Shown here: positions 7,673 to 33,182 of the stretch, piece by piece | How the letters are laid out: the number at the start of each line of letters is the position of its first letter | Numbering within the stretch: position 1 is the stretch's first letter | NCBI GenBank assembly: GCA_965243395.1 | Contig: CBDEUS010000002.1 | Location: 512,001-576,000, forward strand | From: Gammaproteobacteria bacterium | GTDB lineage: Bacteria; Pseudomonadota; Gammaproteobacteria; UBA4575 | Direction: 5' to 3' | Length of the DNA stretch: 64,000 nucleotides | Program-made: the position numbers and the translations under genes | The notes under the pieces: model-generated | Told to the model about the DNA's origin: nothing | Seen by the model: only the letters and a program-made list of their open reading frames with translations | Database searches by the model: none

Positions 7673-7696
7673 CTATGCACCTAAAGAGGGCACATT

Positions 7697-10167: not shown

Positions 10168-10232
10168 TAGTAATAAATTTGGTTAGATGAGTGTTACTTT
10201 TTCAGAAGTTTATAATCTTCAATAACATGAAT

Positions 10233-10260
10233 ATGTCCGTTATTGGCCGTAAGCAGACAT
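10233..10260 (+). repeat. 28-bp site (inverted relative to the main array)
   Basis: atgtccgttat-tggccg-taagcagacat. Confidence 0.75.
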
Positions 10261-10349
10261 TAACGACACAATTCGTGTATGGAAAACAGTGCAAGCAGTA
10301 ATTGTGATATTCCAAAGCATCACACCTATGATGCTCCAAACCGAAAGTA

Positions 10350-11246
10350 TTAGATTTCTTCTAATAACCATTCTTGAAAACATTTAATTTTCTTGCGATG
10401 AGCATAGGATTCAGGATATACAAGTGTATATCTTCCACCAAGAGGAATTTTTTGTTGATAGGGTGCAACTAAACGATTAGTCGTAAGATCCTCGTCAGAC
10501 AAACTTATTCGACCCAGTACAATTCCAGCTCCATCTATTGCAGACTGCACGGCATGGTCCGGTTCACTAAAATGTGGCCCTAAATCAAAATTAATATCTG
10601 TATAACCTGATTGTTCAAACCAATATTGCCATCCTGGTTTACCTAAAAACGTCTCAATGGAATCATCATGTATAAGGGTAAAACTTTTAAGATCTTCAAT
10701 TTTTTCAAGCTTACCTTTTTCTTTTATTAATAATGGGCTACACATAGGTGTTATATGTTCTTCAAAAAGCTCAATTTTTTTCAGGCCTGGATAGTCATCG
10801 GGACTGAATCGAATTGCCGCATCAACGGACTCCCGGTGAAAGTCTACAATTCTGAGGCTTGATGAAATATGAAGATTGATATTTGAATATGCGGAATTGA
10901 ATTTTTCTAACCTAGGACTAAGCCACTTTGCGGTAAACATTGGCGCGGCACTTATACTTAGTTCTTCTCTACCTTCATCTCCTACAATTTGTTCAATCGC
11001 TTGATCAAGCTGTAAAAAACCATCACTTAATCTTGGCAATAATCTTTTAGCGGTATCAGTGAGGAATAATTTATTAGGTTGTCGCTCAAATAATTGAGCA
11101 TCTAAATATTCTTCTAGGGTTTTAATCTGTTGGCTAATTGCACCAGGGGTGACATGCAGTTCTTCAGCAGCTTTAACAAAACTTAAATGTCTAGCCGCGG
11201 CCTCAAATGAACGTAAAGCGGTAAGTGGATAGTTGCGTCTAGTCAT
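10350..11246 (-). CDS. LysR regulator, GcvA subfamily
   Basis: PLTALRSFEAAARHLSFVKAAEELHVTPGAISQQIKTLE; likely start MTRRNYP. Confidence 0.9.
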   Translation of the reverse strand: MTRRNYPLTALRSFEAAARHLSFVKAAEELHVTPGAISQQIKTLEEYLDAQLFERQPNKLFLTDTAKRLLPRLSDGFLQLDQAIEQIVGDEGREELSISAAPMFTAKWLSPRLEKFNSAYSNINLHISSSLRIVDFHRESVDAAIRFSPDDYPGLKKIELFEEHITPMCSPLLIKEKGKLEKIEDLKSFTLIHDDSIETFLGKPGWQYWFEQSGYTDINFDLGPHFSEPDHAVQSAIDGAGIVLGRISLSDEDLTTNRLVAPYQQKIPLGGRYTLVYPESYAHRKKIKCFQEWLLEEI

Positions 11247-11361
11247 AAAAACCCGCCCTATATTTTCTAAACCAGGCTTAAGAATTACTCGTTTGCTGGG
11301 AAGCAAGACTGTAATTATCGTTTTACCTTCAATTTATCACAACTATTAAGGAGAAAGGGCT

Positions 11362-11808
11362 ATGCCTATTATTGATATTGAAATCCCGCAAGGGGCGTTA
11401 AAAGACAATGTAAAACACCAACTACCTGAAAAATTAGGCCGTATTGCCATTGAATATGAAGGGTTAAGCGGCAGTCGATTTGCACAAGAGTTTACTTGGT
11501 TATACATCCATGAGTTACCGGTAACTCATGTAGCGCAAGTATCTGGAGAGCTGCCTAAGCCAATTTATCGGGTCACCTTTACTACTTTAGAAACACTTTT
11601 AGACGATGAACGTAAACACATGCTTGGTGTTGATGTTGCCAAAGCTATTTACGAAGCAGAAGGCTCAAAGTGGAATCCCGAGGAAGCCCATAACCGGGTT
11701 TGGACATTTTTTAATGATGTCAGACAAGGTGACTGGATTGCTGGCTCACTCATCAACAACATTCCAGATCTTCAAAAAAGAGTGGAAAAAGAGCGAGCGG
11801 CTGCCTAG
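11362..11808 (+). CDS. Tautomerase superfamily protein
   Basis: N-terminal MPIIDI (catalytic Pro1), doubled beta-alpha-beta length, W.AG tail. Confidence 0.75.
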   Translation: MPIIDIEIPQGALKDNVKHQLPEKLGRIAIEYEGLSGSRFAQEFTWLYIHELPVTHVAQVSGELPKPIYRVTFTTLETLLDDERKHMLGVDVAKAIYEAEGSKWNPEEAHNRVWTFFNDVRQGDWIAGSLINNIPDLQKRVEKERAAA

Positions 11809-11893
11809 GTATTTGAAATTTATTAGTAATGAATAAGTGCATCCCATTATTTATGGGATGCACTTTAAAAGAAGATTAATGCAGGAGATTACA

Positions 11894-12502
11894 ATGCAAA
11901 ATTTAAACAAAGGTGTTTTTTCTAAAAACCCTAACTATAACGAATCAACAATGCGCAAAGAGTTCGCCCAGCTAATGCCTTTGCGAACGATCGTTATCTA
12001 TTGTTACGACCCACGTGCAACCGGTATTCCATCTGCGGTGGCACAAGAGTTTGGAGATGTATATCCCGGGGAAACAGTGTTTGATGAGGAAGGTAATGGG
12101 ATTGCTACTACATGCTCATTATTAAATGTAATTGTGGCGGGCGGGCGGGCGATTGATGCGCTTCGCTCCATAACTGTTGGGCAACACTTGTTAGGAGTGG
12201 AGAACATTGTTGTCGTTCATCATACCGATTGTGGTGCTACGTCATATACAGCGGATGGAATCGTCGAAGCTTTTAAACATGAGCATAATGTTGATATATC
12301 GAACTTATATGACCAAGCTAGTGTTTGCATTACTGATTTTGAATCTTCGCTCAATCATGACGTTCAATTAATTCGTAACTCAGTTGGCACACCGCCACAT
12401 GTAAATATCTATGGCTATGTCTATGACATAGACACATATGAATTAACCAAAATCACTGAAGATTTATCTTCCAATACATTTCAAGCATCAGCGGTTCAAT
12501 AG
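11894..12502 (+). CDS. Beta-carbonic anhydrase family protein (clade D-like)
   Basis: CYDPR and HHTDCG zinc ligands, AGGR motif; start placed after AGGAG RBS. Confidence 0.85.
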   Translation: MQNLNKGVFSKNPNYNESTMRKEFAQLMPLRTIVIYCYDPRATGIPSAVAQEFGDVYPGETVFDEEGNGIATTCSLLNVIVAGGRAIDALRSITVGQHLLGVENIVVVHHTDCGATSYTADGIVEAFKHEHNVDISNLYDQASVCITDFESSLNHDVQLIRNSVGTPPHVNIYGYVYDIDTYELTKITEDLSSNTFQASAVQ

Positions 12503-12514
12503 AAGGTAAATATT

Positions 12515-13060
12515 ATGAGTAATTTCAGTTATTCAAAAAAATTCCTAGGGGTAGGGGATGTTTTCTTACGCTCCCCTGATTATTACAAACCTTTACTCGA
12601 CTTTTTGGAAAACGTAATGGTCAGTGAATCGGAACTAACAAAAGCAGAACGGGAAATCATCGCATCGCATGTATCTAATATTAATGGATGCACATTTTGC
12701 TTGAATGCGCATCGAGCCACGCTAGAAGCAATGAATGTGAGTAATGAAACAATATCCACACTTGAGAATGGGATAGAAATAAAGGGTATCCGTGATGAGT
12801 TGCGACAATTAATCGTATTTGCAGATAAATTAACACGAACACCTGAAAGCATATCAATTACTGACATTGATGCTCTTAAAGAAGTAGGTATTTCAGAACA
12901 GACTATTGAAGATACGATAAATGTTGTGTCGATCTTTAATTATGTAAATCGATTGACAGATTCATTTGGCGTGAAGGGTAACCCTCTATATTTCAAGCAA
13001 GTGGGCACGTCACTTGTAAAATATGGTTATGCGCATTTGCTGAATAAAAAGGCGGCCTAA
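12515..13060 (+). CDS. AhpD / carboxymuconolactone decarboxylase-like peroxidase-related enzyme
   Basis: EREIIASHVSNINGCTFCLNAH. Confidence 0.85.
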   Translation: MSNFSYSKKFLGVGDVFLRSPDYYKPLLDFLENVMVSESELTKAEREIIASHVSNINGCTFCLNAHRATLEAMNVSNETISTLENGIEIKGIRDELRQLIVFADKLTRTPESISITDIDALKEVGISEQTIEDTINVVSIFNYVNRLTDSFGVKGNPLYFKQVGTSLVKYGYAHLLNKKAA

Positions 13061-13078
13061 TTCTTAGGAGACCAGCAA

Positions 13079-13225
13079 ATGAATAAGTTTTATAAAGGAA
13101 TTGCTTCACTAGTAATTTTAGTGATTATCATTCTACAAATCGTCTATGTTATGCAAGATGAACATATAAGTAATGATAATCAAAAAAATTATGCGTTAGA
13201 AAGATTTCCAGACATTCATCCTTGA
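13079..13225 (+). CDS. Small membrane protein (48 aa, not in track)
   Basis: AGGAG RBS; MNKFYKGIASLVILVIIILQIVYV. Confidence 0.4.
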   Translation: MNKFYKGIASLVILVIIILQIVYVMQDEHISNDNQKNYALERFPDIHP

Positions 13226-13244
13226 TTAGTGAGAGTTCTTTAAA

Positions 13245-13637
13245 ATGAACGACAAACTCGCATGGAACATTAAGGGAGAAACGTTTGAGGATGGAAGTAA
13301 TCTATCGGATTGGGAAAAGTTTTACCAAAGCCCGGAATGGCATTGGCAATATGATACTCATGAGATGACATTTGGAATTTATAAACATTCAGGGCAATTT
13401 TGGAAGCTTTATCTTGGGCGATATGTTCTCCCAGGTGAAACTGATTATACATACGATTACGGTGGTGTTGCTTGTCGCATGATGCTGGTTAAATATCGTA
13501 GTAAAGCTCGTTCACCACATTCTTCTATGCTCAAAGAAAAGGGCGAGGAAGAATGGATACGCACTAACGAATACGATCCTATCATTCACTCAATCTTAAA
13601 AGAGGGAGAAACCTCAGTTGAATATGATGAAAAATAA
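13245..13637 (+). CDS. Hypothetical protein
   Basis: 130-aa aromatic-rich ORF. Confidence 0.65.
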   Translation: MNDKLAWNIKGETFEDGSNLSDWEKFYQSPEWHWQYDTHEMTFGIYKHSGQFWKLYLGRYVLPGETDYTYDYGGVACRMMLVKYRSKARSPHSSMLKEKGEEEWIRTNEYDPIIHSILKEGETSVEYDEK

Positions 13638-13860
13638 TGTAGAACAGAAAGAGCCTGAAGAAATTACATTATGGCAAGCTGTGAAGAGTGTGTTGGCTTC
13701 ATTTATTGGAATTCAAAATAAAAAGAATATGGAGCGCGATGCTCAATCAGATAAAAACATTCCCATATTCCTCGCAGTAGGTTTTATACTCGCAATCCTG
13801 CTCCATGTAATAATTTACATAGCCGTAAAAATAATTCTTTGGCAATCAGGGATTTCCTAA
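13618..13860 (+). CDS. DUF2970-like membrane protein
   Basis: WQAVKSVLASFIGIQNKKNMERD motif. Confidence 0.75.
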   Translation: MNMMKNNVEQKEPEEITLWQAVKSVLASFIGIQNKKNMERDAQSDKNIPIFLAVGFILAILLHVIIYIAVKIILWQSGIS

Positions 13861-13890
13861 AATATTGAACATCGAATATATTTAATAAAC

Positions 13891-13991
13891 TTGTCCGCTA
13901 TTGGCCGGAAGCAGACAAATTATAGGATGAGTCAGGTTGGAATCAATGAACTACAAACTTAAAATGTTCGTTTTAAGTCAATTGCGGACAT
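13891..13991 (+). repeat. Doublet of 28-bp sites with 45-bp spacer
   Basis: ttgtccgctat-tggccg-gaagcagacaa and degenerate atgttcgtttt-aagtca-attgcggacat. Confidence 0.7.
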
Positions 13992-14080
13992 TGTTAAACT
14001 ACGCTCTGCAGACATGTATTCATCATATTAAGCATCTACTTTGTGTGACGAGGACTACCAATCCTCTTAGCTTTATTCAA

Positions 14081-14108
14081 TTGTCTGCTTTCTGCCAATT
14101 GTGAACAT
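14081..14108 (-). repeat. Degenerate 28-bp site, main-array orientation
   Basis: ttgtctgcttt-ctgcca-attgtgaacat, 19 bp from the stop of 14128-14847. Confidence 0.6.
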
Positions 14109-14127
14109 TTAGTCCTCTAAAATTTTT

Positions 14128-20726: not shown

Positions 20727-22388
20727 CTATTCGCCTCCTTCGCCGGCGATTTGAAACAGTGCACCCAGATTGATTGAACCATGTACATCCGGGGATTGTA
20801 TGTTTTCCAGATCATTCGGATTCCCGGCATTTAAATTGGAGGCCGTATCATCCGGTGGAAATAACACTAAGGTTTCTAAAAACGCAAGAATACGTCGTTG
20901 ATCTCGAACCCTGAGATTGACATACGCATCTCTTGATTCTTGTGCTTCGCCCCCATGACGTTTAATGACTGCATCTAAATTAATACTACGTCCATCATGT
21001 CCATAGGGTGCAGTAGAACCCACGCCCCATAACGGTTCGGTTACGAATTCTGTTACCACTGAACCATCAAAATCACGCTCATGAAAGGCAGGACCTAAGT
21101 CATGGCGTTTAAGATCAGAATAAAAATTTTGTACAACAAATTGTTCGCCGTTGGGTTGTAACAATGGAAATTCATTGCCATCGTCTTCCGGAGTAAACAA
21201 CGTGTTTGCGGTGGCAAATAATTGATTGAAAATTCCTTGTTCGGGATCGTAAACAGTTTCGACATCGGCGACACGACGATCACTATTGATTCGTAAATTC
21301 GGCTTATGACATTCCGTACACCCAATGCTTTCTAGCAGATCGCGACCACGTTCTGCTTGGCGTGTGACTTGGTATTGAGCCGGTTTAAAATAATTAAGCA
21401 AATAAAATTCCATATGATCAATGAGTGCAGGATCAATTTCACTGACTACACCATCATTATCGGCATCTTCGCTGGCATCACACACGGGAGGACGTTCAAA
21501 GGTATCTTGTTCGGGATCGTATTCAAAACCACTTGGACTGGTCATGGCTTGTGGATTATCCGGATCCGTGACCGCACAGAGCACAGGATCCCACGCTTGT
21601 AGACCCATCTCATCTTTAAAGGCACCAATGATAAATTCTCGCATCGATATGGTTCCGCCTTGATGAAAAAAAGGTTTGATACGCAAATCTTCATCGACAC
21701 CTTCCACCGCGGAAGTATCAACCTCGCCATTCGGGCATGCGGTGAGGGTGCCAAAAGACACGCGTTTGGCCCGAAGCGGTGTGGTGATACAACGATTTTG
21801 TTCGACCGCAACCTCTAATGCGCGATCGCGACGTGCACGTAAGCGTTGTGTCATCTCTTCGGCCAGTTGCTCCACAATACCCAAACCAAATAGATGCGGG
21901 GCATCACGACTGTCCGGTCGTGTATTCACATCCCCACCAAATCCTGCTGAACCTCTCGGACGTCCATGACATGCGGCACAACTATCTGCAAGCCCGGCTC
22001 CAAGTGCACGATTTTGTGTAATGTCTCCGGTTGAATTTGCATTAACGCGAGGACCATGACCTTCATCAGTAGAAAATTTTCGTTGAAAAAGTTGTCGACC
22101 TCGTCGTATAGAGCGTGCGGGATCACGTTTAATTAAATACACTGCTGATCCGGCGGTGTTCACATCACCGTGACCATTACCAATTTGTTCATCTAAACGT
22201 TTCGCGATACAACCACCAGGCGCATTAACCGTTCCTACATCGACCTTGTCACAAGGGACAAGTTCTGCTTGAACATTTTGTGCAAACATAAGCCCGACAA
22301 GCATCGTGAGCACGAGAACGAATCGAATTAGAAGAATATTCTGACGAGCGAAACCGATCGGTTTCCCTACTTGTTTTAATACACTCAT
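20727..22388 (-). CDS. Di-haem oxidoreductase family protein (DHOR/DUF1111-like)
   Basis: CAACH and CTECH haem motifs, PHLFGLG, SDLKRHDLG, TEPLWGVG..PYGHDGR; start chosen after GAGG RBS. Confidence 0.8.
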   Translation of the reverse strand: MSVLKQVGKPIGFARQNILLIRFVLVLTMLVGLMFAQNVQAELVPCDKVDVGTVNAPGGCIAKRLDEQIGNGHGDVNTAGSAVYLIKRDPARSIRRGRQLFQRKFSTDEGHGPRVNANSTGDITQNRALGAGLADSCAACHGRPRGSAGFGGDVNTRPDSRDAPHLFGLGIVEQLAEEMTQRLRARRDRALEVAVEQNRCITTPLRAKRVSFGTLTACPNGEVDTSAVEGVDEDLRIKPFFHQGGTISMREFIIGAFKDEMGLQAWDPVLCAVTDPDNPQAMTSPSGFEYDPEQDTFERPPVCDASEDADNDGVVSEIDPALIDHMEFYLLNYFKPAQYQVTRQAERGRDLLESIGCTECHKPNLRINSDRRVADVETVYDPEQGIFNQLFATANTLFTPEDDGNEFPLLQPNGEQFVVQNFYSDLKRHDLGPAFHERDFDGSVVTEFVTEPLWGVGSTAPYGHDGRSINLDAVIKRHGGEAQESRDAYVNLRVRDQRRILAFLETLVLFPPDDTASNLNAGNPNDLENIQSPDVHGSINLGALFQIAGEGGE

Positions 22389-23069
22389 GTTGAGACCTCG
22401 ACAAATATTAACTGCGTTAAAATACATTGCGTAAACCGCCTTGTTGCGCAATTACTATTTGCTGATCAGGAATAGGGAAGGCTTACTTACAGAATAGTAA
22501 GTAAAGATCTCGTCCAACTCCTAGATAGCGCTGTCGCTTCTCTCAAAATATTGTTGTTCATTCAAGATCACTCCTCATCTTGAATGTGTATTATCCTAAT
22601 CTACTCACACTGTAGTAGCAATTGGCCATCGTCTTGTGTGATAAGTGTAAAAATAAAGTAACGATCTAATTATAAAGATGAAATCGTATTTAAATACTTA
22701 TTCATTGAAATATTTAATCTGTTTAATTAAATAAATATTCTTTTAATTTAAAAAGATTTCTCCAGTTTTCTACGTTGTATTTCAGCAACACTTTGTATGG
22801 ATACATATAGTAGGTGTAAAGCGTCATATTTTTCTAACACTAACTTCAATACAACAAAAAAATAAATTTGTGGCCGATACGCAACGTTAAAATAATAAAA
22901 TTTTATATTTAATTTAAATAATAATGTTTAGCTCGTTTAATTTTTTACTAAGAAATAATTAATCAAAAATTTTAGAATTTTATTTTTCTATGATTGTCAA
23001 ATGCACAAGAGGAAAATGGAGTCGAATTTCCTCTCTTTTATAATTACGTTTAATAATAGGAGTTGGAAT

Positions 23070-23327
23070 ATGAAATATTTACACAAAACATTTTTTACCG
23101 CTTATATCGGTGCCCTTTTGATATGTAATCCAGTATTGGCTGCGAGCGAAGAGTTACCAGCCTTCGATACAGTCGATACTAATCAAGATGGCATGATAAG
23201 CAGAGACGAAGCCTCTAAAGTTCCAGAGATTGCTAATCTCTATAATGGTGCCGATTTAGATCAAGATGGAAATCTTGACGCTAATGAATACGATAGGGCC
23301 AAGAAACATATTGAGAGAAAGTCTTAA
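23070..23327 (+). CDS. Exported EF-hand protein
   Basis: DTNQDGMISRDE and DLDQDGNLDANE; AGGAG RBS. Confidence 0.8.
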   Translation: MKYLHKTFFTAYIGALLICNPVLAASEELPAFDTVDTNQDGMISRDEASKVPEIANLYNGADLDQDGNLDANEYDRAKKHIERKS

Positions 23328-23346
23328 ATAATAAATTCAATTGAAT

Positions 23347-23374
23347 ATGGCGCATCTATGATTAGGTGCGCCAT
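23347..23374. terminator. Hairpin between convergent genes
   Basis: ATGGCGCAT ... GTGCGCCAT. Confidence 0.5.
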
Positions 23375-23447
23375 CGTTATTAAACGAAAGACAAAATATT
23401 AATACCTTTGTATCCACCAGATTTCTACAATCAAATCTTATAAGGAT

Positions 23448-24167
23448 TTAATGTTCCCACATGGTTCGCTTCTTGCCTTTTTCTTCTTTAATCTTGGCCC
23501 CTGTTAGTTGACTCCATAAGTTGACTCCCACCATTACTTCAATATGAGTGGTCGGTACTTGGAATTTATCTAAAGATTTAGTTGATGATTTATGTGGCAT
23601 GACAAAGGACCACATATGAAGCGCCCCGCTTTTTCTTTCTGCTAACACAGATTTAAAAAATGCATGAGGGACAGGGAGTTTAATGGGACTATCATCAGTC
23701 GTTTGAATGGTTTCAATTACGAGATCGAAATCAAAGATTGGTCCGCTGATAACATACACTTCGTATACGTCATCCAGGTCATTTAATTTTCTTACGGCAT
23801 TTTCAAGTCGCTTCCACACACCATTATTAAAACCCTGTTCTTGTGGGCACATATTAGAAAGCAAAAACGTTTCACTGTCTTGTAAAACCTCTTCATTCTG
23901 ATTCGCACTGGCTACAAGATGGCCTCGCGAGAAACCGGAACCTACATATTGTGCTTTATCCACTCGAAATAATTCTGGGATACGAAAGTCCGATCTAAAA
24001 TTTTCAGAACGTTCAACGTCTATCGTACCTCTATCCACTATTTCTAATGCCCATTTAGCTTGTCGATAGTAATAGGAGTACCCGACGATATAGTGTCTGT
24101 TAATTAGAATCTGGTCTGCCGCCGGCATTCCATAGCGAGTTTCAGCCCATTGACTAGGATCAAACAT
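23448..24167 (-). CDS. DNA/RNA non-specific endonuclease (NucA/EndoG family)
   Basis: SRGHL, TFLLSNMCPQ, FNNGVWKRLE; starts 20 bp after the last 28-bp site. Confidence 0.9.
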   Translation of the reverse strand: MFDPSQWAETRYGMPAADQILINRHYIVGYSYYYRQAKWALEIVDRGTIDVERSENFRSDFRIPELFRVDKAQYVGSGFSRGHLVASANQNEEVLQDSETFLLSNMCPQEQGFNNGVWKRLENAVRKLNDLDDVYEVYVISGPIFDFDLVIETIQTTDDSPIKLPVPHAFFKSVLAERKSGALHMWSFVMPHKSSTKSLDKFQVPTTHIEVMVGVNLWSQLTGAKIKEEKGKKRTMWEH

Positions 24168-24359
24168 AAATTCCTCCTAATACTTGAATGTCCGCTTTCG
24201 GCCAATAGCCGTTTTTTTACACTGTCGAATATTTTATAAATCTACAAACGTAGGAATTATCACTATGAATGGTAATTCGTAGTAACTCTATTTCACAATA
24301 TAAAATAACAATTTTGGGTACAATAACATTTAATTTTATTTACATGGATGTAAATCTAA

Positions 24360-24740
24360 ATGAAAAAACTATTACTACTAATACTGTTATTACCAAGTAT
24401 TGGATTAACAGCTAATAATGGATCTGGGAATAAGTTATTAGAGCAATGTAGCTATGCGGATGCATTGATTCATGGCAAAAAGATAAATGCTGATTTAGGT
24501 GAAGATTATGCGTTTCTTTGTCTTGGCTACGTTTCAGGTGTCTATGACGCATTATTTATGAGCAATCAAGTATGTGGCCCTAATGTAGCAGATTGGAACC
24601 AAGCTAGAATAGTTTATAACTATTTAATCGAAAATTCCGAGATACTTCATTTTGATCGACATGTTCTCACCAAAATTGCATTAAAAAAAGCATATTCTTG
24701 TAACAGCAGTCAGACTGAATATTTATCTAGCACTGACTAG
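24360..24740 (+). CDS. Rap1a/Tai-family immunity protein
   Basis: GNKLLEQC ... CLGYVSGVYD ... VC.P ... YL..N.E.LH ... AL..AY.C. Confidence 0.75.
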   Translation: MKKLLLLILLLPSIGLTANNGSGNKLLEQCSYADALIHGKKINADLGEDYAFLCLGYVSGVYDALFMSNQVCGPNVADWNQARIVYNYLIENSEILHFDRHVLTKIALKKAYSCNSSQTEYLSSTD

Positions 24741-24774
24741 AAAAAGTCTGCTTTCGGCCAATAGCGGACAAAAA

Positions 24775-25431
24775 TTATTGTATATAGTTATTAAAAACTA
24801 CAAATATTAAACTCGCTTTTTTCAATTTTGTAACTTCATATTTATTCCCATCATGAACGGCAATCAGCGCATGCAACCCCGCTTCACTAATCCTAATATC
24901 ATGTTTGTATATTCCTTCTACACCAAAATCAATTTCACCTAAAAGTGTGCAGGGCTCGCTAAAATATGCAAGCATGATGAAATTCTCTTCATCATCTTCA
25001 AGACCTCCAGATAGAAACATATCTTTTCCAGCATCGTAACCAAAAGTGCTCAATCTTAAGTATTTAGTACTTGCTGGCTCAATATTTAACCCTTTGTTAT
25101 ATTCGCTCTCAATATTCGCGGCAGAATAACCCACAATCTCTGAACCAAATCTCTTAAGATCAATACTTGGTTTAGACTCTAGACTCATATCAATCATCCA
25201 ATATTTGTCTTTCAAGGGTGCACCATAAAGTGAACCTGGAATAATACCCAACTCAAGAAAAAGAGTATCTGGTGTATCAAAGTTATCTGAAACAACTTTT
25301 GTTTGTTTAAGCTTTAAATGGACTAATTTTGATGAATCTGAATTTTGATTTGCTGAAAAACCTAATAGCGAAATTAGTACTAAAATCGCCGTCATCCATC
25401 CAATCAATATTGATATTTTCTTATTCAACAT
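24775..25431 (-). CDS. Cassette ORF, membrane-anchored hypothetical protein
   Basis: Fills the interval between two sites; N-terminal TM. Confidence 0.7.
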   Translation of the reverse strand: MLNKKISILIGWMTAILVLISLLGFSANQNSDSSKLVHLKLKQTKVVSDNFDTPDTLFLELGIIPGSLYGAPLKDKYWMIDMSLESKPSIDLKRFGSEIVGYSAANIESEYNKGLNIEPASTKYLRLSTFGYDAGKDMFLSGGLEDDEENFIMLAYFSEPCTLLGEIDFGVEGIYKHDIRISEAGLHALIAVHDGNKYEVTKLKKASLIFVVFNNYIQ

Positions 25432-25478
25432 TTTTGTAATTTAAATGTCCGCTTTGGGTCGTTAGTAGTCATTTTATA

Positions 25479-25760
25479 CTAGTATTTTTTATTGCAGTTC
25501 CAACAATTCTTATTCGGCAAGCGAAAATCAAATATATTATTACTTCTCCAAATTTGCTTTTTGCCACAGTCATCACATTTCAATGTGAACATATAATAAA
25601 CAAAATATAAGCTATAGATTATTGTTACATAATAGTGCCACCCTATTTCTCCAAGCCAATTTTCATAGTTTGAAATAGGTTTTTGTAACACCCTATGTAT
25701 CACAACAAGTATTACGAGAACAGAAAGTAGAAATAAGAATTTTGTTCTATGACTGAACAT
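25479..25760 (-). CDS. Cassette ORF, membrane protein with zinc ribbon
   Basis: 2 TM helices; CDDC and CWNC. Confidence 0.65.
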   Translation of the reverse strand: MFSHRTKFLFLLSVLVILVVIHRVLQKPISNYENWLGEIGWHYYVTIIYSLYFVYYMFTLKCDDCGKKQIWRSNNIFDFRLPNKNCWNCNKKY

Positions 25761-25848
25761 GAATAATTTTTGTCCGCTTTGGGTCGATAGCAGTCATTTA
25801 GTATTTATATTTTTTGTACATTATACATTTATCTTTATAGCTACTCTC

Positions 25849-26495
25849 TTATTTTGTGCTTTGAATTAACTTACTAACTAAAACACCAAGCACTCCAATA
25901 ATGTAAAAGGCAATTGGAATAATTAGCCAGCCATACCATGTGCTTAATAGGTTTGATAAATAAGATCCAATTATACTTTGTGGTGCAAGTTTTATAGAAA
26001 TTAATCCAACAAGCATGATAACAACTACAAGGATAGCTACAGTAACATCACCACCTGTTACTTTCTGCACAGAGGCGTGCTGTGGATTTATCTTTTTTAA
26101 TCTACGCTTTATATACTGACCTATTAAATAAACTAGCCCACAAATGCCTAGTAATATAATCCCAGCAATTAAAAGTGCTATGCCCGCTCCCACATCACGC
26201 TTCTTGGAGATGTATATAATATTATTTTTTTCTCTAACTGATAAATTGTTCTCTTCAGCTATCTTATAAATTGCTTCCTTCCAAGGCATGCACTCAAAAT
26301 TAATGGGTACTGATTTATTTATGGATGAGTCCATTTTTATTTCAATCACAGCAAAATCTGCTAATAAAGCGTAAGCTGATTTTAATTTTAAATTTTGAAA
26401 ACTAAATCGAAGTCTCCGTCATCACAATTAGCCCACGCCAAGGAACTTACAAAAAATGTAAGAAAAATTAAAATAAAAAGTCTATTGCTTCTCAA
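25849..26495 (-). pseudogene. Cassette ORF, STN-like domain fused to a membrane region, apparently frameshifted near 26400
   Basis: Signal peptide from TTG 26495; one extra T restores VFQNLKLKSAYALLADFA, similar to the PilQ NFQD...IADF segment. Confidence 0.5.
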
Positions 26496-26530
26496 TATAA
26501 TTAATCTGTTTTCGGCCAATAGCGGTCATA

Positions 26531-27088
26531 TTAAAATTCTTTTTCTTTTAGATAACCAGATGGACAATGTTTGTCTTCAATACGTGTATCACAAACATAA
26601 ACAGTCCTAAACTTATCAACCCATTTGTTCAATTCTGTAGCAGATACATTTTTTTGCCAAATTTTAAGTAGATGATAAGTACTATCTTTTCCTTTTATGG
26701 CTAGATTTAAAATTTGAGCTTTTGAATTGTCCTCTTTTAAGCAAACTGTACGCCAAAGCAAAGACTTATAATTTTGGTTATCTATTGGGTCTAATTCTAT
26801 AGATTCAAAAGATTTACATGCTTTTTTGCCCGGCTTATCTTGCTCTTTTCTCATTTTTGAAGGTTTTTTATTAGACCCATATCTAATATTTACTGCATAA
26901 GCATCTCGCATACCGCTTTCTTTACTACGCCATAGCATACTTCTAAATTTTCCTTCTTTCTTTGTAAGGATTTCCCATTTTTCAGAGCTTAATTCATAGG
27001 GGACAATTAAATTCTCACCTTCGTAAAATTCTGATGAATATACATTTGTAAAAATCCCAATCAATAAAATGAGTATTACTAATTTCAT
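26531..27088 (-). CDS. Cassette ORF, exported hypothetical protein
   Basis: Signal peptide; stop 1 bp from the site. Confidence 0.75.
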   Translation of the reverse strand: MKLVILILLIGIFTNVYSSEFYEGENLIVPYELSSEKWEILTKKEGKFRSMLWRSKESGMRDAYAVNIRYGSNKKPSKMRKEQDKPGKKACKSFESIELDPIDNQNYKSLLWRTVCLKEDNSKAQILNLAIKGKDSTYHLLKIWQKNVSATELNKWVDKFRTVYVCDTRIEDKHCPSGYLKEKEF

Positions 27089-27169
27089 AATGCCGCCTTC
27101 GATGAATAAATTTAGTAGAACGGATAACTATCTTATAATGTCCGCTTTGGGTCGTTAGCAGACATTAAA

Positions 27170-27592
27170 TTACCACGGCCCTCTTAAACTTATATCAACA
27201 CCGTCTCCCGATGGTGTCATTTTAATTGTATACGCCACTTTTCTGCCATCAGTCCTTTCTACAACCCATGCTTCGGTTATCGATGTTGAATCTTTTGTCA
27301 ATAAGCGTGTTTCAATTACTTTACCAGTGGATTGCCCCTCGCTTGATTCAGCTTGTTTAATTAGATTTTCTATATCTTTCTTTAAGGTGGCATCAGCTAC
27401 AGTTGGAGATTCAGTACCAAGCAGGTATTTTTCCATTGCCACCGAACCACCACCAATATCTTTAGATGACCATCTATAAGGTGATCCATCTTGTTCTAAT
27501 TTTTTGTTTAAATCATTTACGGCATTATGGACTGAGGTATTTGCACAACCAAAGAATGTAAACATTGTTAAAAGTATTAATAGTAATTTCAT
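27170..27592 (-). CDS. Cassette ORF, lipoprotein
   Basis: GAGG RBS, MKLLLILL...FFGC lipobox; track start runs into the site. Confidence 0.75.
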   Translation of the reverse strand: MKLLLILLTMFTFFGCANTSVHNAVNDLNKKLEQDGSPYRWSSKDIGGGSVAMEKYLLGTESPTVADATLKKDIENLIKQAESSEGQSTGKVIETRLLTKDSTSITEAWVVERTDGRKVAYTIKMTPSGDGVDISLRGPW

Positions 27593-27633
27593 AAGCACCT
27601 CAATTAAATAAGCTCTCTTTCGGCCATTAGCGG

Positions 27634-27975
27634 TCATTTCTTAATATGAAAGTTAAAAGTATATCTTGCACGAAGTACAACTTTCTCAGAGTCATAAGAA
27701 TATTCTGATAGCTCAATTACGACCGTGTCCTTTCCGATATAATTGTTCATTGGTTTATATCTGAATATGTGTTCATAGGTTTTTTTATTCCAAATAATTT
27801 CACTTATTTCAGAGTTTTGTGCTTGTTTAACAATTTCGAGCGCTTGCTCATCACCAATACTGCCAAGATTTTTCTCATAGGTTTGATTAATATTCAAATT
27901 AATCTCAACTTTAGGTGCGCACCCAAAAAAAGAAACTAGAGTAAAAATTAATACTATTAGTAAGTATTTTTGCAC
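27634..27975 (-). CDS. Cassette ORF, lipoprotein
   Basis: GTG start after the site, FFGC lipobox; TGA stop lies inside the next site. Confidence 0.6.
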   Translation of the reverse strand: MQKYLLIVLIFTLVSFFGCAPKVEINLNINQTYEKNLGSIGDEQALEIVKQAQNSEISEIIWNKKTYEHIFRYKPMNNYIGKDTVVIELSEYSYDSEKVVLRARYTFNFHIKK

Positions 27976-28100
27976 AACTGAAAATGCCCACTTTGGGTCG
28001 TTATTGGACATTTTTTTCTTGTATGTAATTGATTCCAACCTACTACTTCTCATTTTATGACTGCTTTCGGCAAATAGCGGACATATTAGGAATGTAATAT

Positions 28101-28397
28101 TCAATCAGCATTATAATCTTGCGGATATGGATTAGGCTTTTGGATTTTATCGCTGTAAATCCAAGAACGCATTAGTTTTGGGATAGCACTCGTGTGCAAA
28201 ACTGATTCACTTTCTTGATAAGAAAATCTCAGTGCTATAGCAAATCCAAGTACTGGCAGTATCCATATAATAAATATTCTAAGTATCTTAACTGGTGTTG
28301 AAATATTTTCTTCGAGTAGAGTAATTAAAGAAGCAATTAAATTAAAATAAACTATGAATAATATGATACAAATGGATACGATTATAAAAATGTCCAT
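28101..28397 (-). CDS. Cassette ORF, small membrane protein
   Basis: 2 TM helices, IWILPVLG. Confidence 0.65.
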   Translation of the reverse strand: MDIFIIVSICIILFIVYFNLIASLITLLEENISTPVKILRIFIIWILPVLGFAIALRFSYQESESVLHTSAIPKLMRSWIYSDKIQKPNPYPQDYNAD

Positions 28398-28500
28398 TAA
28401 GTTTTCACCTATTTACTTAATCTTTGTACACTTATCATCTATATGTTCTTAATATGATGTCTGCTTTCGGCCAATAGGGGACATTCATCATCCTAACTCA

Positions 28501-28962
28501 TCATGCAGTTGATCTTTCAGCAAACTCTCTAAATCGATTCATAAATGTGAGCGTCTGTTTTTTGAATACACTAGGCATGAAAATGCTCATAAGCTTGACG
28601 ACAATTCCTGAGCATTTGTATTCAGCGTTGAGAACCCACCTAGTTTTATTATTATCAACTTTGAAAAAATGGTTCTCAATGAGATTCCAAATGCCATCTG
28701 CTTCATAGGTTGCAGAAAATTCGTTGGGGTAATTGTGGGTTTTAATGGTCTCAATCATTTCGATTTCTCGTCCACCCATCTTATGAATTTGTTTTGATTG
28801 TGATCCTACCTGACGGGATTCGCCACTTATTTGTTCAAAGTTTATAAGGTCTGGCTGCCATTTGGCTAGATTATTTGGATCTAGAAATAATTCGATGACG
28901 CGCTCTCTCGGCAGTTTGATTTCGATTTCAACTTCATAACTTTTGGAGGTTTCTATTGCCAA
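28501..28962 (-). CDS. Cassette ORF, SRPBCC/START-like protein
   Basis: IEIKLPRERVIELFLDPNNLAKWQP ... FKKQT..FM..F..FAE. Confidence 0.85.
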   Translation of the reverse strand: MAIETSKSYEVEIEIKLPRERVIELFLDPNNLAKWQPDLINFEQISGESRQVGSQSKQIHKMGGREIEMIETIKTHNYPNEFSATYEADGIWNLIENHFFKVDNNKTRWVLNAEYKCSGIVVKLMSIFMPSVFKKQTLTFMNRFREFAERSTA

Positions 28963-29001
28963 TTAATTGTCTCCTTTCGGCCAATAGCGGACATTTGAAA
29001 A

Positions 29002-29403
29002 TTATGAGTGATCAAAAATCTCGATGTCACCATTTTCAAATATAGCTATTATAATTTTATCTCTAATTCCACTTGTAACCCCGACATGAAATTGTAAGTA
29101 AATAACCCTACCTCCTAATTCTTCATAACCACCTTCATAGGATAATTGAATACCGTTATGATAAGCACTTGGGATTTCATTTAAAATTATTTGAGGTATT
29201 TCGATTGTTTTACCAAATGCTCGTACAGTAATTTCTGAAAACAATCGTTTGGTATCTTTCTTTGCCTTAACGACAACAGGGCCTGATTCATCAATCGCTT
29301 CAGAGAATATATGAATGCTAGTAAACGGTAGTACGCCTTCTCGTGAAGAGTATGTGGCTGACATTATTAGATACAAAATCAGGAAAACCATTACTTTTCT
29401 CAT
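29002..29403 (-). CDS. Cassette ORF, exported hypothetical protein
   Basis: Signal peptide; fills the interval. Confidence 0.7.
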   Translation of the reverse strand: MRKVMVFLILYLIMSATYSSREGVLPFTSIHIFSEAIDESGPVVVKAKKDTKRLFSEITVRAFGKTIEIPQIILNEIPSAYHNGIQLSYEGGYEELGGRVIYLQFHVGVTSGIRDKIIIAIFENGDIEIFDHS

Positions 29404-29472
29404 AACCTATCCTTAAATATATCTAGTGAAAAAAGAATATTGAAATGTCCGCTTTGGGTCGTTAGCAGTCAT

Positions 29473-30048
29473 TCAATCGCTATTTATACTATCTCTCCAC
29501 TTCCATGGAGGGATTGGGTCTTCTGTTTTCCATAGTCCTACTTTTTTTGACTTCGCCCAGTATTCTTTACTATTTAAATCTTTCTGCCTTTCTTTTGGTA
29601 ACTGCTTGTAAAATCTTCGCATTACCCATGCATGACCGCATACGACCATTTTTGCATTTACATTTACCCATTCATTATCTGATTCACTTTGTACATATAT
29701 AGTTGCCAACATTCGCTCATATTTATCATAACCATGTGACTCTATTCGAATATGACGACCACCAATTAATCGAATCAGGCCATATTTAGCATTGTCACCC
29801 CAAGGCTGACCATCTTCTGGGCAATCGATTGCGTATAGCCTTACTTTAGACTTACTCCATTCATCACCTACGATAATTGTATCTCCATCAATTACATGAT
29901 GGACTTTTTTTGTCTCGTAGCTTTTTTTATTTGATATTAGTTCTTTATCTTCATCTGATTTTGGTTTTTTATCTTTATCAGACTTGAGGCTAGTTATTAT
30001 GACTAGAGCAATTAAAAATACTACAAATAAAAGTATTCCTAATTCCAT
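29473..30048 (-). CDS. Cassette ORF, thermonuclease (SNase-like)
   Basis: VIDGDTI, VRLYAIDCPE, DKYERMLA, GLW, PPWKWR. Confidence 0.9.
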   Translation of the reverse strand: MELGILLFVVFLIALVIITSLKSDKDKKPKSDEDKELISNKKSYETKKVHHVIDGDTIIVGDEWSKSKVRLYAIDCPEDGQPWGDNAKYGLIRLIGGRHIRIESHGYDKYERMLATIYVQSESDNEWVNVNAKMVVCGHAWVMRRFYKQLPKERQKDLNSKEYWAKSKKVGLWKTEDPIPPWKWRDSINSD

Positions 30049-30154
30049 TTTTTTAGCTTACATTTGTTTAGAGAAATATGTCGTTTTGAACCATTAGTGG
30101 ACATTTATGAATTAATGGGATTGTGCTGTTGTCATTCGGTGATTTCGTCGATAC

Positions 30155-30517
30155 TCATTTACCGTCACCACATCTGCCCCATTCTCTATAAACTTTTCCA
30201 TTCTTTGGTGAAATAAAAGCAACATCAAATAAGTTTTGTGAGTTAGAAACAATCACACAACCATGTAACACACCAACTTTCCCGTAATAGTCTCCATCAA
30301 AGTCTGATTTTAGAAATACTATTGCTGCATCATTTTGACCTACACCAGCAATTTCAATTAACAGACTCTTTCCAACTTCGTATGAACAGTGTTTTGTTTG
30401 ACTACTATCCTCATGACATTCTTTACCAGAAATCACAGCACTAAATGTTTTTTCTTCACCAAAACATGGTGCCGAAAATAAAATTAAAATGATAAATATA
30501 AATTTATAAATTTTCAT
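30155..30517 (-). CDS. Cassette ORF, exported hypothetical protein
   Basis: Signal peptide, paired Cys. Confidence 0.7.
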   Translation of the reverse strand: MKIYKFIFIILILFSAPCFGEEKTFSAVISGKECHEDSSQTKHCSYEVGKSLLIEIAGVGQNDAAIVFLKSDFDGDYYGKVGVLHGCVIVSNSQNLFDVAFISPKNGKVYREWGRCGDGK

Positions 30518-30572
30518 TGATTTAGTCCATTTTAATTAAAGATAATTAATGTCCGCTTTCGGCCATTAGCGG

Positions 30573-31103
30573 TCATTCTGTGGAAGACACTAATTCACTA
30601 CAATCCATCACCTCTTTTGCAACGATTTGTGTTGGTGAGGTTGTTCGCTCAACGACTAAGGCAGGCTTCTCTTCTTTGCTATTAATTATAAATACACGAT
30701 ACGTATGCCCTGGATTAGCATTTAAATTAACATCGGCATTACAACTCAACGTTATCTGCTTATACTCTGGTTCAGAAAAACCGCCACCTAATTTAGCTAT
30801 TATGCAAAAAGGTAAAAGAATTAAACACCGAAGTTCAGGATTTTTTCGATCTTTATGCTTTATTTTATCTGAATTTGGTTCTACTTCTATTTGATGAATT
30901 ACATTTCCATTAAAGGAAATCTCAAAGTTTCCAGACTTTGATTGATAAGACTTGTTTTTATTAAAAGGCTTATCATTAATACTGACATTTTCCACCTGGA
31001 CATTAATTGTTGATTCTTTAAATAATTTACCTTTTAAGCTAGGCCCTGATGACGTTGAACATCCTGATATAAAAATTAGAGTTGTGATAACAAAAATTTT
31101 CAA
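30573..31103 (-). CDS. Cassette ORF, lipoprotein
   Basis: ISGC lipobox; TGA stop lies inside the site at 30549-30576. Confidence 0.75.
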   Translation of the reverse strand: MKIFVITTLIFISGCSTSSGPSLKGKLFKESTINVQVENVSINDKPFNKNKSYQSKSGNFEISFNGNVIHQIEVEPNSDKIKHKDRKNPELRCLILLPFCIIAKLGGGFSEPEYKQITLSCNADVNLNANPGHTYRVFIINSKEEKPALVVERTTSPTQIVAKEVMDCSELVSSTE

Positions 31104-31189
31104 AATTTGAAACTTAATTATGTCCGCTTTGGGTCGTTAGCGGACATTCGAGCACACATAATATATACGGTCAAAATAGATAGAACATT

Positions 31190-31260
31190 TGGTGGAAGGA
31201 TGGTGGAAAATAATTCCAAGGAGATATCAAAGAAACCGGATAATTAGTAACTAGTTGATT
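31190..31260 (-). other. Integrase arm-type repeats and IHF site at the island right end
   Basis: TGGTGGAAGGATGGTGGAAAA; minus strand AATCAACTAGTTA fits WATCAANNNNTTR. Confidence 0.6.
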
Positions 31261-31264
31261 TTAT

Positions 31265-31341
31265 TGGTGGGCCCGGTAGGACTCGAACCTACGACCAAAG
31301 GATTATGAGTCCTCTGCTCTAACCAACTGAGCTACAGGCCC
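31265..31341 (-). tRNA. ileX: tRNA-Ile2 (anticodon CAT, lysidine type)
   Basis: GGGCCTGTAGCTCAGTTGGTTAGAGCAGAGGACTCATAATCCTTTGGTCGTAGGTTCGAGTCCTACCGGGCCCACCA; position downstream of rpoD as for E. coli ileX. Confidence 0.88.
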
Positions 31342-31370
31342 TAACAAGATAAGTAATTGAAAGTAGAAGT

Positions 31371-33182
31371 TTACTCTATTTCCAGAAAACTACGTAACTG
31401 TTCAGAGCGACTCGGATGGCGTAGTTTACGCAATGCTTTAGCTTCAATTTGTCGAATACGTTCACGTGTTACATCAAATTGTTTGCCTACTTCTTCCAAT
31501 GTATGGTCAGTATTCATATCAATACCAAAACGCATACGCAGAACTTTAGCTTCACGGGGAGTGAGTGATGCAAGAATTTCACGTGTGGCCTCGCCTAAAC
31601 CCTCGAATGCTGCGGAGTCAACGGGTGACTCAATAGTGGCATCTTCGATGAAGTCACCAAGATGAGAATCTTCATCATCACCGATAGGTGTTTCCATTGA
31701 GATAGGTTCTTTTGCAATTTTAAGAACTTTACGCACTTTGTCTTCGGGCATCTCCATACGCTCAGCAAGCTCTTCCGGGGTCGCTTCACGTCCCATTTCT
31801 TGCAACATTTGGCGCGAGATGCGATTAAGCTTGTTAATGGTTTCGATCATATGTACAGGAATTCGAATAGTGCGCGCTTGATCAGCAATCGATCGTGTAA
31901 TGGCTTGACGAATCCACCAAGTTGCATAAGTAGAAAATTTGTAACCGCGTCGATATTCAAATTTATCTACGGCTTTCATTAAACCGATATTACCTTCCTG
32001 GATGAGGTCTAAAAACTGCAAACCACGGTTTGTATATTTTTTCGCAATAGAAATTACTAAACGTAAATTCGCTTCAACCATTTCCTTTTTAGCTCGACGT
32101 GCTTTCGCTTCGCCGATGGACATGCGGCGGTTGATGTCTTTTATTTCGCCTACTGTTAAACTAATTTCCTCTTCAATGAATAAAAGTTTTTCCTGTTCTT
32201 TTATAATCTCAGATTTAAATTCCGTTAAAGATGTTGCATATTTGGCTTTCGCGTGGGTGTTTACCCAATCTAAATTTGTCTCGTTACCAGAAAAAGTTTC
32301 TATAAACTTGCTGCGCGACATTTTCACATCATGTACGCAAATTTGCATAATCGCTCGTTCATGAGTACGAATACGGTTCATCATTTTTCGTACATCATCT
32401 GTTAAAATTTCAACGATTTTAGGCACTAGCTTGACCATAGTGAATTCTTCGGCAAGCTTTTCACGCGCTGTAGCTAACTTTTTCTCGTTATTTGCAACAG
32501 TAGTACTAGAGATTTTTTTAAATAATTTTTCTAATCCTTTAAAGTAAGCGCGTGCTTCTTCTGGATCTGGGCCTGTGTCAATTTCTTCTTCAGACTCTTC
32601 ACCTTCTTCTTGATTTTTTTCTCTTTCTGCTTGTTGTTGTGCTGCAGGAGGTGGAATTGCATCCGTATCTTCATCCGGATCCATAAAGCCTGTAATCAAA
32701 TCAGTAAGTCGCAATTCTTCAGTTTCAACTTTGTCATACATGAACAAAAGTTTTTCTATGGTTGCGGGGTAATGGCCGATAGCAAATAAAACCTGTCGTA
32801 AACCATCTTCAATACGTTTAGCGATTTTAATTTCGCCTTCTCTTGTTAATAGATTAACAATGCCCATTTCACGCATGTACATACGCACTGGATCTGTGGT
32901 TCGACCAAATTCACTATCTACAGTAGCGAGTGCCGCAGCGGCTTCTTCAGCAGCATCATCGTCAGTAACATTATCGTCTGTTAATACTAAGCTATCTGTA
33001 TCTGGGGCCTGTTCATGGACTTTAATGCCCATGTCGTTAATCATGCTAACGATGTCTTCGATTTGTTCCGGGTCAACAATACCGCTAGGAAGATGGTCAT
33101 TTACTTCAGCATAAGTAAGGTAACCTTGTTCTTTTCCTTTAGCGATGAGTTGTTTGATACTGGATTGCTGATCTTCGTCCAT
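31371..33182 (-). CDS. rpoD: RNA polymerase sigma-70
   Basis: Regions 1.1-4: [33 protein letters not shown]. Confidence 0.99.

Follow-up and report, generated by a model that had tools for sequence, protein, structure and literature searches.

What arranges a run of small, unrelated genes into a series in which each gene is closed by a copy of the same short palindrome? The question is raised by a 64,000-nucleotide stretch of the genome of a Gammaproteobacteria bacterium from the GTDB lineage UBA4575 (GenBank assembly GCA_965243395.1, contig CBDEUS010000002.1, positions 512,001 to 576,000 of the forward strand), which was analyzed at its full length and is referred to here as the window. Within it, 15 co-oriented copies of a 28-bp imperfect palindrome span positions 24188–31147. 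An initial annotation had described this region as an integron-like gene cassette array built on an unfamiliar site and had proposed a distinct gene-capture system with its entry point near the adjoining tRNA gene. The reading we favor, with slightly better than even confidence, makes the 28-bp element the recombination site of gene cassettes carried on the chromosome, in a system that is integron-like in its working and differently built.

All 15 sites of the initial annotation were recovered. A scan of the window with a 15-nt degenerate core pattern, allowing at most one mismatch, returned 17 matches (1.35 expected), a number that none of 100 shuffles reached; the pattern recovers 13 of the 15 array copies, with those at 27984 and 30077 escaping it. 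It was also correctly observed that the copy proximal to the tRNA gene, at 31120–31147, is the only one whose arms show 0 mismatches over 9 bp (the other 14 copies have one to seven), and that stop codons abut the sites or fall within them, with the TGA codons at 27634–27636 and 30573–30575 lying inside. The division of the array into 14 intervals stood in part. Thirteen of them hold one open reading frame (ORF) each, of 93–218 amino acids (aa), and the remaining, non-coding interval is a conserved 44-bp spacer between the two sites of a doublet (28057 and 27984) rather than an empty cassette of arbitrary sequence.

Read in the sense of the genes, that is, on the minus strand, the consensus of the site is AATGWCCGCT-AWYGRCCSAA-AGCRGACAT in a 29-mer numbering in which the 28-bp site occupies positions 2–29. 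Inverted arms of 11 bp (sense ATGWCCGCTAW ... AAAGCRGWCAT) flank a 6-bp center, and this center occurs as two alleles, A (CGACCC; ...AACGACCCAA...) and B (TGGCCG; ...ATTGGCCGAA...). Among the 78 strong sites of the window's own genome (G000; 2.58 Mb in two contigs, C1 and C2, and 100% complete by marker genes), 32 carry allele A and 41 carry allele B. A common composite is a doublet in which a B site is followed by a conserved spacer of 30, 44, or 54 bp and then by an A site, with start-to-start distances of 59, 73, or 83 nt. Across the genomes examined, doublets run B-then-A in 43 cases, B-then-B in six, and A-then-B in none.

A position weight matrix (PWM) built from the 15 window copies identifies 112 distinct sites in G000 at a threshold of 18 bits or more, whereas a shuffled genome gave one match at the laxer threshold of 14 bits. 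This genome-wide scan, which the initial annotation had suggested, finds the sites clustered in arrays and tracking the ends and direction of genes, not scattered regardless of them. Nearly all lie within about 12 arrays, each of which begins behind an ordinary gene or a tRNA; 74 of the 78 strong sites have a neighbor within 3 kb, and the orientation is the same in 59 of 59 adjacent pairs. Most sites are intergenic (109 of 112) and match the orientation of the upstream gene (100 of 112). The median gap is 6–12 nt from stop codon to site and 31–39 nt from site to the next start codon, and 25 sites overlap the stop codon, 14 of them providing its TGA at site positions 3–5. Genes upstream of sites are short, with a median of 161 aa versus 236 aa genome-wide, and nearly all of the proteins encoded beside sites are singletons; the clusters with several members are ordinary ABC and two-component families. 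Two small two-site arrays lie close to Xer recombinase genes (C1:422916–423419, 3 kb from xerD, and C2:247854–248502, 2.5 kb from xerC), a proximity that may be coincidental.

Between relatives, cassette order is not identical and array content varies at conserved loci, as the initial annotation had anticipated for a cassette system. At the nuoN–tRNA locus, for instance, the closest relative, G012 (90% nucleotide identity in the rpoD region), carries a 16.3-kb array of about 25 units, with cargo that includes DinB, GyrI-like/Cass2 with AraC, NYN, DUF1801, M23, MORN, and TPR proteins, versus 58 bp in G000. The array locus at C1:115975–118359 of G000 holds other units in G012, and the G000 homologues of those units are found at four other loci. 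The lysA–xerC locus bears an array both in G000 and in G031, a member of another genus, with different units in the two, and an array in G003 that adjoins the same tRNA-Met gene as the window array has no cassette in common with G000.

Single units of the window array also recur on their own elsewhere. The SNase unit and its downstream site are found again at G011:C1:715857–716506 (76% nucleotide identity), and the 140-aa lipoprotein unit with its site at G004:C1:7854–8312 (73%) and G001:C1:942813–943119 (68%); in these recurring units the homology starts just past the upstream site and takes in the downstream site up to its outer edge. Copies within single genomes are closer still: an 87-aa unit is present in two arrays of G012 at 95% identity, and G031 has an 884-bp and a 495-bp unit, each present at two loci with 100% identity. 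The latter genome further contains a mosaic in which adjacent blocks of 484, 413, and 501 bp, each 100% identical to a separate locus (at about 0.27, 1.33, and 1.77 Mb), meet at two sites. In the sediment-metagenome run X1, a 927-nt contig corresponds to 27165–27638 of the window with 5 differing letters and then continues for 453 nt unlike the 14-kb stretch compared, which we take as a weak hint of the unit in another context; stretches of the array left uncovered in X1 were not counted as evidence.

Where within the site do such blocks meet? Among 806 sites with context, we collected junction pairs with at least 95% identity over 150 nt on one side and less than 45% on the other. The search yielded 19 pairs, 10 sharing the upstream side and nine sharing the downstream side. 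With a shared upstream flank that is 100% identical, mismatches within the site occur only at positions 17, 24, 26, 27, and 29; with a shared downstream flank that is 100% identical, they occur only at positions 1–18. One pair joins an A site and a B site that differ at positions 4–18 and are identical from position 19 on, through the 11-nt right arm and 150 further nucleotides. As placed by these comparisons, the joints fit 12|13 or 18|19, the borders of the 6-bp center in an 11-6-11 site, and 11-6-11 with a 6-bp center is the layout of tyrosine-recombinase core sites. Homologous recombination is hard to invoke for the A/B pair because only 11 nt are shared at that joint.

If the joints do lie at the borders of the center, the center alleles would thus stay unsplit. 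On the metagenome contigs described below, among the matches listed, 277 sites that had not been selected by the query combine center halves as A/A in 124 cases, B/B in 99, B-left/A-right in 16, and A-left/B-right in none. The 16:0 asymmetry between the hybrid centers was set aside as evidence, given that it could also arise from one C-to-T substitution at position 13. Scans for half-sites were also abandoned: they returned 39 half-sites versus 14–21 in controls, with break positions that were too noisy and selection-biased, and several of the hits were decayed sites or sites with indels.

Under our favored reading, the mobile unit would be a gene plus the site behind it, the site lying 0–20 nt past the stop codon, or supplying it, and pointing in the same direction as the gene. 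Conservative exchange between two sites would excise, copy, insert, and swap such units, and arrays would grow where a site already exists. Joints would form at either border of the 6-bp center, in the geometry of a tyrosine-recombinase core, so that the left arm would stay with the upstream gene, the right arm would stay with the downstream gene, and the center would pass unsplit to either product. The B-spacer-A doublets might be ORF-less mini-units or the two ends of neighboring units. We infer that the exchange is enzymatic and site-specific, that it passes through circular intermediates with cleavage at exactly these positions, and that expression runs through the arrays.

The site is not confined to one genome. 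Exact site cores are present in 30 of 56 genomes of the family and absent from 26, and the site with its same two center alleles occurs in at least six genera. An exact 16-nt core is found in 13 of the 14 genomes of the genus (G014 has none); outside the genus there are 70 copies in G015, 127 in G031, 34 in G033, nine in G040, and seven in G034, with a few copies elsewhere, and this core is missing or nearly so from genera g3, g4, g5, and g22. Controls with the reversed pattern gave 0–1 matches. When the 16-nt core was run over genome contigs, the matches listed were mostly single chance matches in unrelated phyla, and this use of it was given up; the relatives among them were Gammaproteobacteria or 'Thiotrichales' metagenome-assembled genomes. 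A 24-nt B core, by comparison, found at least 120 metagenome contigs. Among the matches listed, 120 contigs carry 416 sites, with at least two sites on 100 of these contigs; 266 of 291 adjacent pairs point the same way, the median spacing is 553 bp, and the largest cluster among 314 encoded proteins of at least 150 aa has three members. A metagenome search with the 140-aa cassette protein gave 586 pattern matches, of which 0 were confirmed. In G031:C1, the orientation of sites flips by chromosome arm, forward at about 0.30–1.96 Mb and reverse elsewhere, in parallel with the direction of the genes that they follow.

Several results weigh against the reading of the element as the recombination site of a cassette system, and many of them concern the enzyme. 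No recombinase linked to the sites was found, and the search for one co-occurring with them, as the initial annotation had advised, produced no candidate; the gene-capture system that it proposed was borne out for single-gene, site-bounded units that differ between species and recur elsewhere, and not for the recombinase. The five PF00589 matches in G000 are XerC, XerD, and three P4-type integrases. The one nearest to the window array, 42 kb away, is the integrase of a genomic island treated below; its only close homologue is in G002, and the site-rich, complete genomes G011, G001, and G015 have none at E ≤ 1e-15. Tyrosine-recombinase counts do not follow site counts, with two in each of the site-rich G004, G007, and G009 versus 4–13 in the site-free genus g3, and XerC and XerD are the only tyrosine recombinases common to all carrier genomes examined. 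RAYT (Y1_Tnp, PF01797) gave 0 matches in the complete G000, in a search whose control was positive in six of 14 named genomes, and Pfam searches of G000 found no Resolvase, IS110, rve, RVT_1, TnpB, or DDE_Tnp_1. No recurrent neighbor protein emerged in G000, G012, G031, or the metagenome loci. The candidate enzyme may be XerC/XerD, a member of an unrecognized family, or an enzyme supplied in trans.

Further objections concern movement and its joints. In G000, the recent duplicates found comprise an ABC-type binding protein, EF-Tu, and giant repeat proteins, with no cassette or transposase among them; for this reason the system may be idle in that genome. No excised circle or empty joint was seen. 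Two sequencing runs labeled as the same species, X6 and X7, matched only at tRNA-like stretches, and read joints at sites, with sides of 30 nt or less, were discarded as repeat artefacts. The joints were mapped on just 19 pairs. Pairs whose flanks are 95–98% identical require an additional point change or two, in one pair the mismatches extend to position 19, and the exact crossover point is masked because the site itself is conserved. Lastly, sites placed at gene 3′ ends and in doublets recall repetitive extragenic palindromes (REPs) and bacterial interspersed mosaic elements (BIMEs).

This last resemblance suggests an alternative that we consider unlikely and still worth weighing at length, namely, that a REP/BIME-like, self-spreading palindrome has piled up in islands of small accessory genes, and that the shuffling of genes is a by-product of homologous recombination or template switching with no dedicated recombinase. 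A short imperfect palindrome that sits right behind stop codons in single and doublet forms is what such an element would look like, but REPs are usually scattered, with alternating orientation within BIMEs, whereas neighboring copies in G000 are invariably co-oriented and largely follow the upstream gene. Decayed and partial copies exist, and at about 1016509–1016660 of G031:C1 a 10-bp unit corresponding to the left arm (TATGACCGCT) is tandemly repeated about 15 times adjoining a full site, which points to slippage. However, REP families are usually species-specific, and here the same two center alleles are kept across genera. The want of a recombinase agrees with this explanation; the want of a RAYT in a complete genome does not. 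Likewise, the joints cannot be placed more finely than the conserved stretch, but they share just an 11-nt arm (in one case) or 28 bp (in others) between blocks that are 100% identical, far under the length generally held to be efficient for RecA-type exchange, and it is gene and site that travel together, not sites alone.

A second alternative, which we rate as improbable, retains site-specific recombination and assigns it to the host: the elements would be Xer-type 11-6-11 sites of 28 bp, and the units would be moved by XerC/XerD, the mechanism put forward for the pdif modules of Acinetobacter plasmids. Both the length and the match of the joints to the borders of a 6-bp center agree with this, XerC and XerD are the sole tyrosine recombinases in every carrier examined (the site-rich G004, G007, and G009 show no other), and the dif modules are, in the accessible part of their published descriptions, a precedent. 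The arms tell a different story, agreeing with the single canonical dif of G000 (C1:959290) at just nine of 22 arm positions, and the likeness of the two arms to each other suggests a homodimer rather than a C/D pair. The direct orientation of the sites differs from the alternating C and D modules that the same descriptions give, and XerC/D are equally present in site-free genera.

Could the element act in RNA alone? It would then be a 3′ stem-loop that ends, processes, or stabilizes cistrons, with the doublet as a 3′ element, a promoter, and a 5′ element, and with no role in gene movement. The position right behind stop codons and the co-orientation with genes would suit this, as would the doublet spacers, which by eye share a TTGGAA-N17-(T/C)(T/A)(T/A)AAT-like motif ending where the A site begins. 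A promoter in the spacer, read by eye from this motif, was rejected when a consensus scan showed no enrichment; promoter-like calls numbered 28 versus 35.6 ± 6.1, and the five terminator-like calls, versus 3.9 expected, include none at a site. An Rfam 15 scan of 22000–32000 at E ≤ 1 found only the tRNA above its gathering score, with no match to the sites. Folding is clearly better than in shuffles for only about four of the 15 window copies, and stems are often broken by changes that go uncompensated: at the mirrored positions 7/24, the pair is C-G 28 times, T-G 19, C-A 24, and T-A twice, with no compensatory pattern. Because of this uncompensated arm variation, the poor folding, and the lack of terminator, promoter, or Rfam signal, the evidence points towards recognition of two half-sites in duplex DNA rather than a selected RNA or single-strand hairpin. 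A conserved, two-allele loop sequence would be superfluous for a stem, and the RNA explanation, which leaves the joints of identical blocks at sites unexplained, strikes us as very improbable.

That the arrays are clusters of degenerate attC sites left by ordinary integrons that lost their integrase is barely credible, for although one ORF plus one co-oriented site, integron-like cargo, and true integron integrases in the family would suit it, the site is 28 bp long, the array has no RYYYAAC...GTTRRRY pair, the four true integron loci of the family that were scanned contain no site at 16 bits or more, and integron integrase is present in the site-free G014 and absent above cut-off from the site-rich G000, G001, G011, G012, and G031. 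The count of attC box pairs in the array, 0 versus 1.15 in shuffles, is in itself a weak test, true integron loci having given just 0–4. In G000, the integron-integrase scores of XerD/XerC (NCBIfam) are 131–135 bits, under the 265-bit cut-off; across 31 family genomes, TIGR02249 exceeds its cut-off in four, G014, G015, G040, and G050. The claim that the sites are not attC is thus upheld. Classical integrons coexist in the family with the 28-bp system, separately: their integrase genes lie at 6942–8018 in G015:C29, in G014:C20, at 7309–8292 in G040:C9, and at 7477–8463 in G050:C3 (coordinates within the fetched stretches), and divergent small-gene arrays stand beside three of them.

The proposal that genes enter near the tRNA found no support. 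Upstream of the window array lie dnaG, rpoD, and the tRNA-Met gene (31265–31341, minus strand). The 3′ 49 nt of tRNA-Met and 2 further nucleotides (31263–31313) are repeated exactly, over 51 bp, at G000:C2:500399–500449, outside the window and 42.9 kb off, and a P4-type integrase gene (C2:500560–501858) adjoins this distal repeat. The direct repeats bound a 43-kb tRNA-Met island, typical of islands linked to a tRNA, with the array at its tRNA end. Its cargo includes genes for a DNA methylase, MerR, LysR, and Usp proteins, a multicopper oxidase with an outer-membrane factor, a di-heme peroxidase, and an Endonuclease_NS protein. In G012, the left flank is kept as far as the repeat, and the locus has no island; a related integrase (67%) and a related repeat are found in G002. 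Most arrays of G000 do not adjoin a tRNA, and a single copy with perfect arms is no evidence of polarity.

The cassettes of the window array can be followed from the tRNA-Met end, all on the minus strand unless stated. The A site with perfect 9-bp arms (31120–31147) lies between tRNA-Met and the first cassette, a 176-aa ORF (30573–31103) with a lipoprotein-like N-terminus and no Pfam family, whose TGA falls inside a B site (30549–30576). Next come a 120-aa ORF with a signal-like N-terminus (30155–30517) and a weak, decayed site of 21 bits by PWM (about 30077–30105); a 191-aa ORF with an SNase domain (29473–30048) and an A site (29445–29472); a 133-aa ORF, again signal-like at its N-terminus (29002–29403), and a B site (28967–28994); a 153-aa SRPBCC (Polyketide_cyc2) ORF (28501–28962) and a B site (28457–28484); and a 98-aa membrane-like ORF (28101–28397) followed by the doublet (27984–28084), in which a B site (28057–28084), the 44-bp spacer, and an A site (27984–28011) give a start-to-start distance of 73 nt. 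A lipoprotein ORF of about 113 aa (27634–27975) has its TGA inside a B site with a decayed right arm (27610–27637), and a second lipoprotein ORF, of about 140 aa (27170–27592), precedes an A site (27138–27165).

The array continues with a 185-aa ORF with a signal-like N-terminus (26531–27088) and a B site whose right arm is decayed (26502–26529); a 166-aa ORF with a GTG start and membrane segments (25849–26349) and an A site (25770–25797); a 93-aa ORF (25479–25760) and an A site (25445–25472); and a 218-aa ORF with a signal-like N-terminus (24775–25431) and a B site (24744–24771). It closes with a 126-aa Rap1a-family ORF on the plus strand (24360–24740) and the last site, of allele B with a decayed left arm (24188–24215), 20 nt ahead of the start codon of a 239-aa Endonuclease_NS gene (23448–24167). 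This NucA/EndoG-like protein is without a signal peptide, and its gene adjoins the Rap1a-family gene, which runs the other way; there are homologues in G011, where a site directly follows the stop codon, and in the site-free G014.

As to the ORFs themselves, one small ORF per interval is confirmed, but two of the starts first listed read through sites, and GTG at 27975 and ATG at 27592, each ahead of a lipoprotein signal, are likelier. A mechanically called ORF at 27634–28104 begins with a TTG upstream of the doublet and continues across the spacer and its two flanking sites into the lipoprotein gene, an extension that is probably not real because the reading frame of the spacer is not kept in other doublets. 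The cargo families named by the initial annotation, Rap1a, SRPBCC, and SNase, were recognized by Pfam, with the amendment that the Rap1a ORF runs opposite to the other cassettes; nine of the 13 ORFs match no family. A signal-like or membrane-like N-terminus is seen in 11 of the 13, three of these with a lipobox.

A second, looser group of the same sites occupies 8827–14110 of the window (plus strand), mostly in the opposite orientation and behind plus-strand genes, with copies at about 8819–8847, 8892–8920, 10232–10260, 13890–13918, 13964–13992, and 14081–14109. At the contig ends of G000 (C1:1–9348, C2:1–10404, C1:1272337–1279210, and C2:1292134–1299313) there are long tandem repeats with periods of about 387 and about 318 bp. 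As these end repeats are common to C1 and C2 in inverted order, the contigs probably belong to a single chromosome that is broken within repeat arrays.

It is possible, at somewhat less than an even chance, that the sites belong to an undescribed, family-wide gene-capture system, with a 28-bp two-allele core site, a recombinase of an unrecognized family or a re-targeted housekeeping enzyme, many arrays with no platform gene, a shared and hyperdiverse environmental pool of small exported proteins, and ORF-less B-spacer-A units that are possibly promoters. A literature search, with most subscription journals beyond its reach, found no description of such a site or system, in agreement with the initial annotation, which knew of none. 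If the enzyme proves new, there is a substantial chance that this is a new kind of system. A gene-cassette system of this sort would amount to the integron principle having been invented independently for a second time and would mean that cassette organization arose more than once; it would also open a large gene pool, given the metagenome contigs and their almost unrepeated cargo. The arrays are invisible to integron finders used in annotation. With carriers and non-carriers in the same family, the enzyme can be sought by comparison of gene content, and, if found, it could make the 28-bp site with its two center alleles a tool for recombination cloning.

Site-specific gene capture is classically exemplified by integrons, and the likeness to them, especially to sedentary chromosomal integrons, is extensive. 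Both have arrays of mostly promoterless-looking single-ORF units with a co-oriented imperfect palindrome that often overlaps the stop codon; in both, the sites of a lineage are very similar, the cargo is hyperdiverse, small, and largely of unknown function, the content of a fixed locus varies, and some units lack an ORF. Even the families carried (DinB, GyrI-like/Cass2, DUF1801, NYN, M23, Rap1a, SNase, and SRPBCC) resemble those of chromosomal integrons. However, attC sites are 57–141 bp long with R and L boxes, whereas the site described here has 28 bp and no boxes, and recombination of a folded single strand contrasts with an apparently double-stranded 11-6-11 core site. There is, moreover, no intI and no single platform, and instead there are about 12 arrays per genome, two center alleles, and B-spacer-A doublets. 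Because none of the integrase and attC features tested was found, the arrays stand outside the integron family and are neither an integron nor a CALIN (at least two attC sites without a nearby intI).

Among other repeats, the dRS3/NIME (Neisseria intergenic mosaic element) arrays and minimal mobile elements of Neisseria are alike in that short inverted repeats flank variable segments between conserved genes; dRS3 is 20 bp long, flanks non-coding repeat units, and serves as a target of phage integration, with no known periodicity of one gene and one site. REPs and BIMEs with their RAYT share with the sites a short (20–40 bp), extragenic, imperfectly palindromic form downstream of genes, single or composite and in many copies, and differ in what has been set out above: here there is no RAYT, orientation is strictly direct with clustering, conservation crosses genera, and the sites border moving units.

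The rAID-1 arrays of Bacteroidales have intergenic repeats that were termed reminiscent of integrons (bioRxiv 10.1101/471110). By the accessible part of that description, they too consist of small genes in long, co-oriented arrays with repetitive sequence between the genes, and the window array has one gene of an immunity family, Rap1a. They are, however, defined by a 5′ XerD-like recombinase gene, of which none was found at the window array, and they are set apart by phylum and by the repeat as described; only one of the 13 ORFs here belongs to an immunity family.

The dif modules, or pdif modules, of Acinetobacter plasmids likewise consist, as far as the accessible part of the published accounts goes, of 28-bp, 11-6-11 sites that flank small accessory modules shuffled between replicons, with no adjoining recombinase gene. 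Set against those accounts, the arrays described here have non-dif arms, direct orientation (in all adjacent pairs of G000 and in most of those on the listed metagenome contigs), a chromosomal location in arrays of tens of units, one site per gene end, and a host from another bacterial family. On the same basis, it is to the dif modules of Acinetobacter plasmids that the geometry of the 28-bp site is closest.

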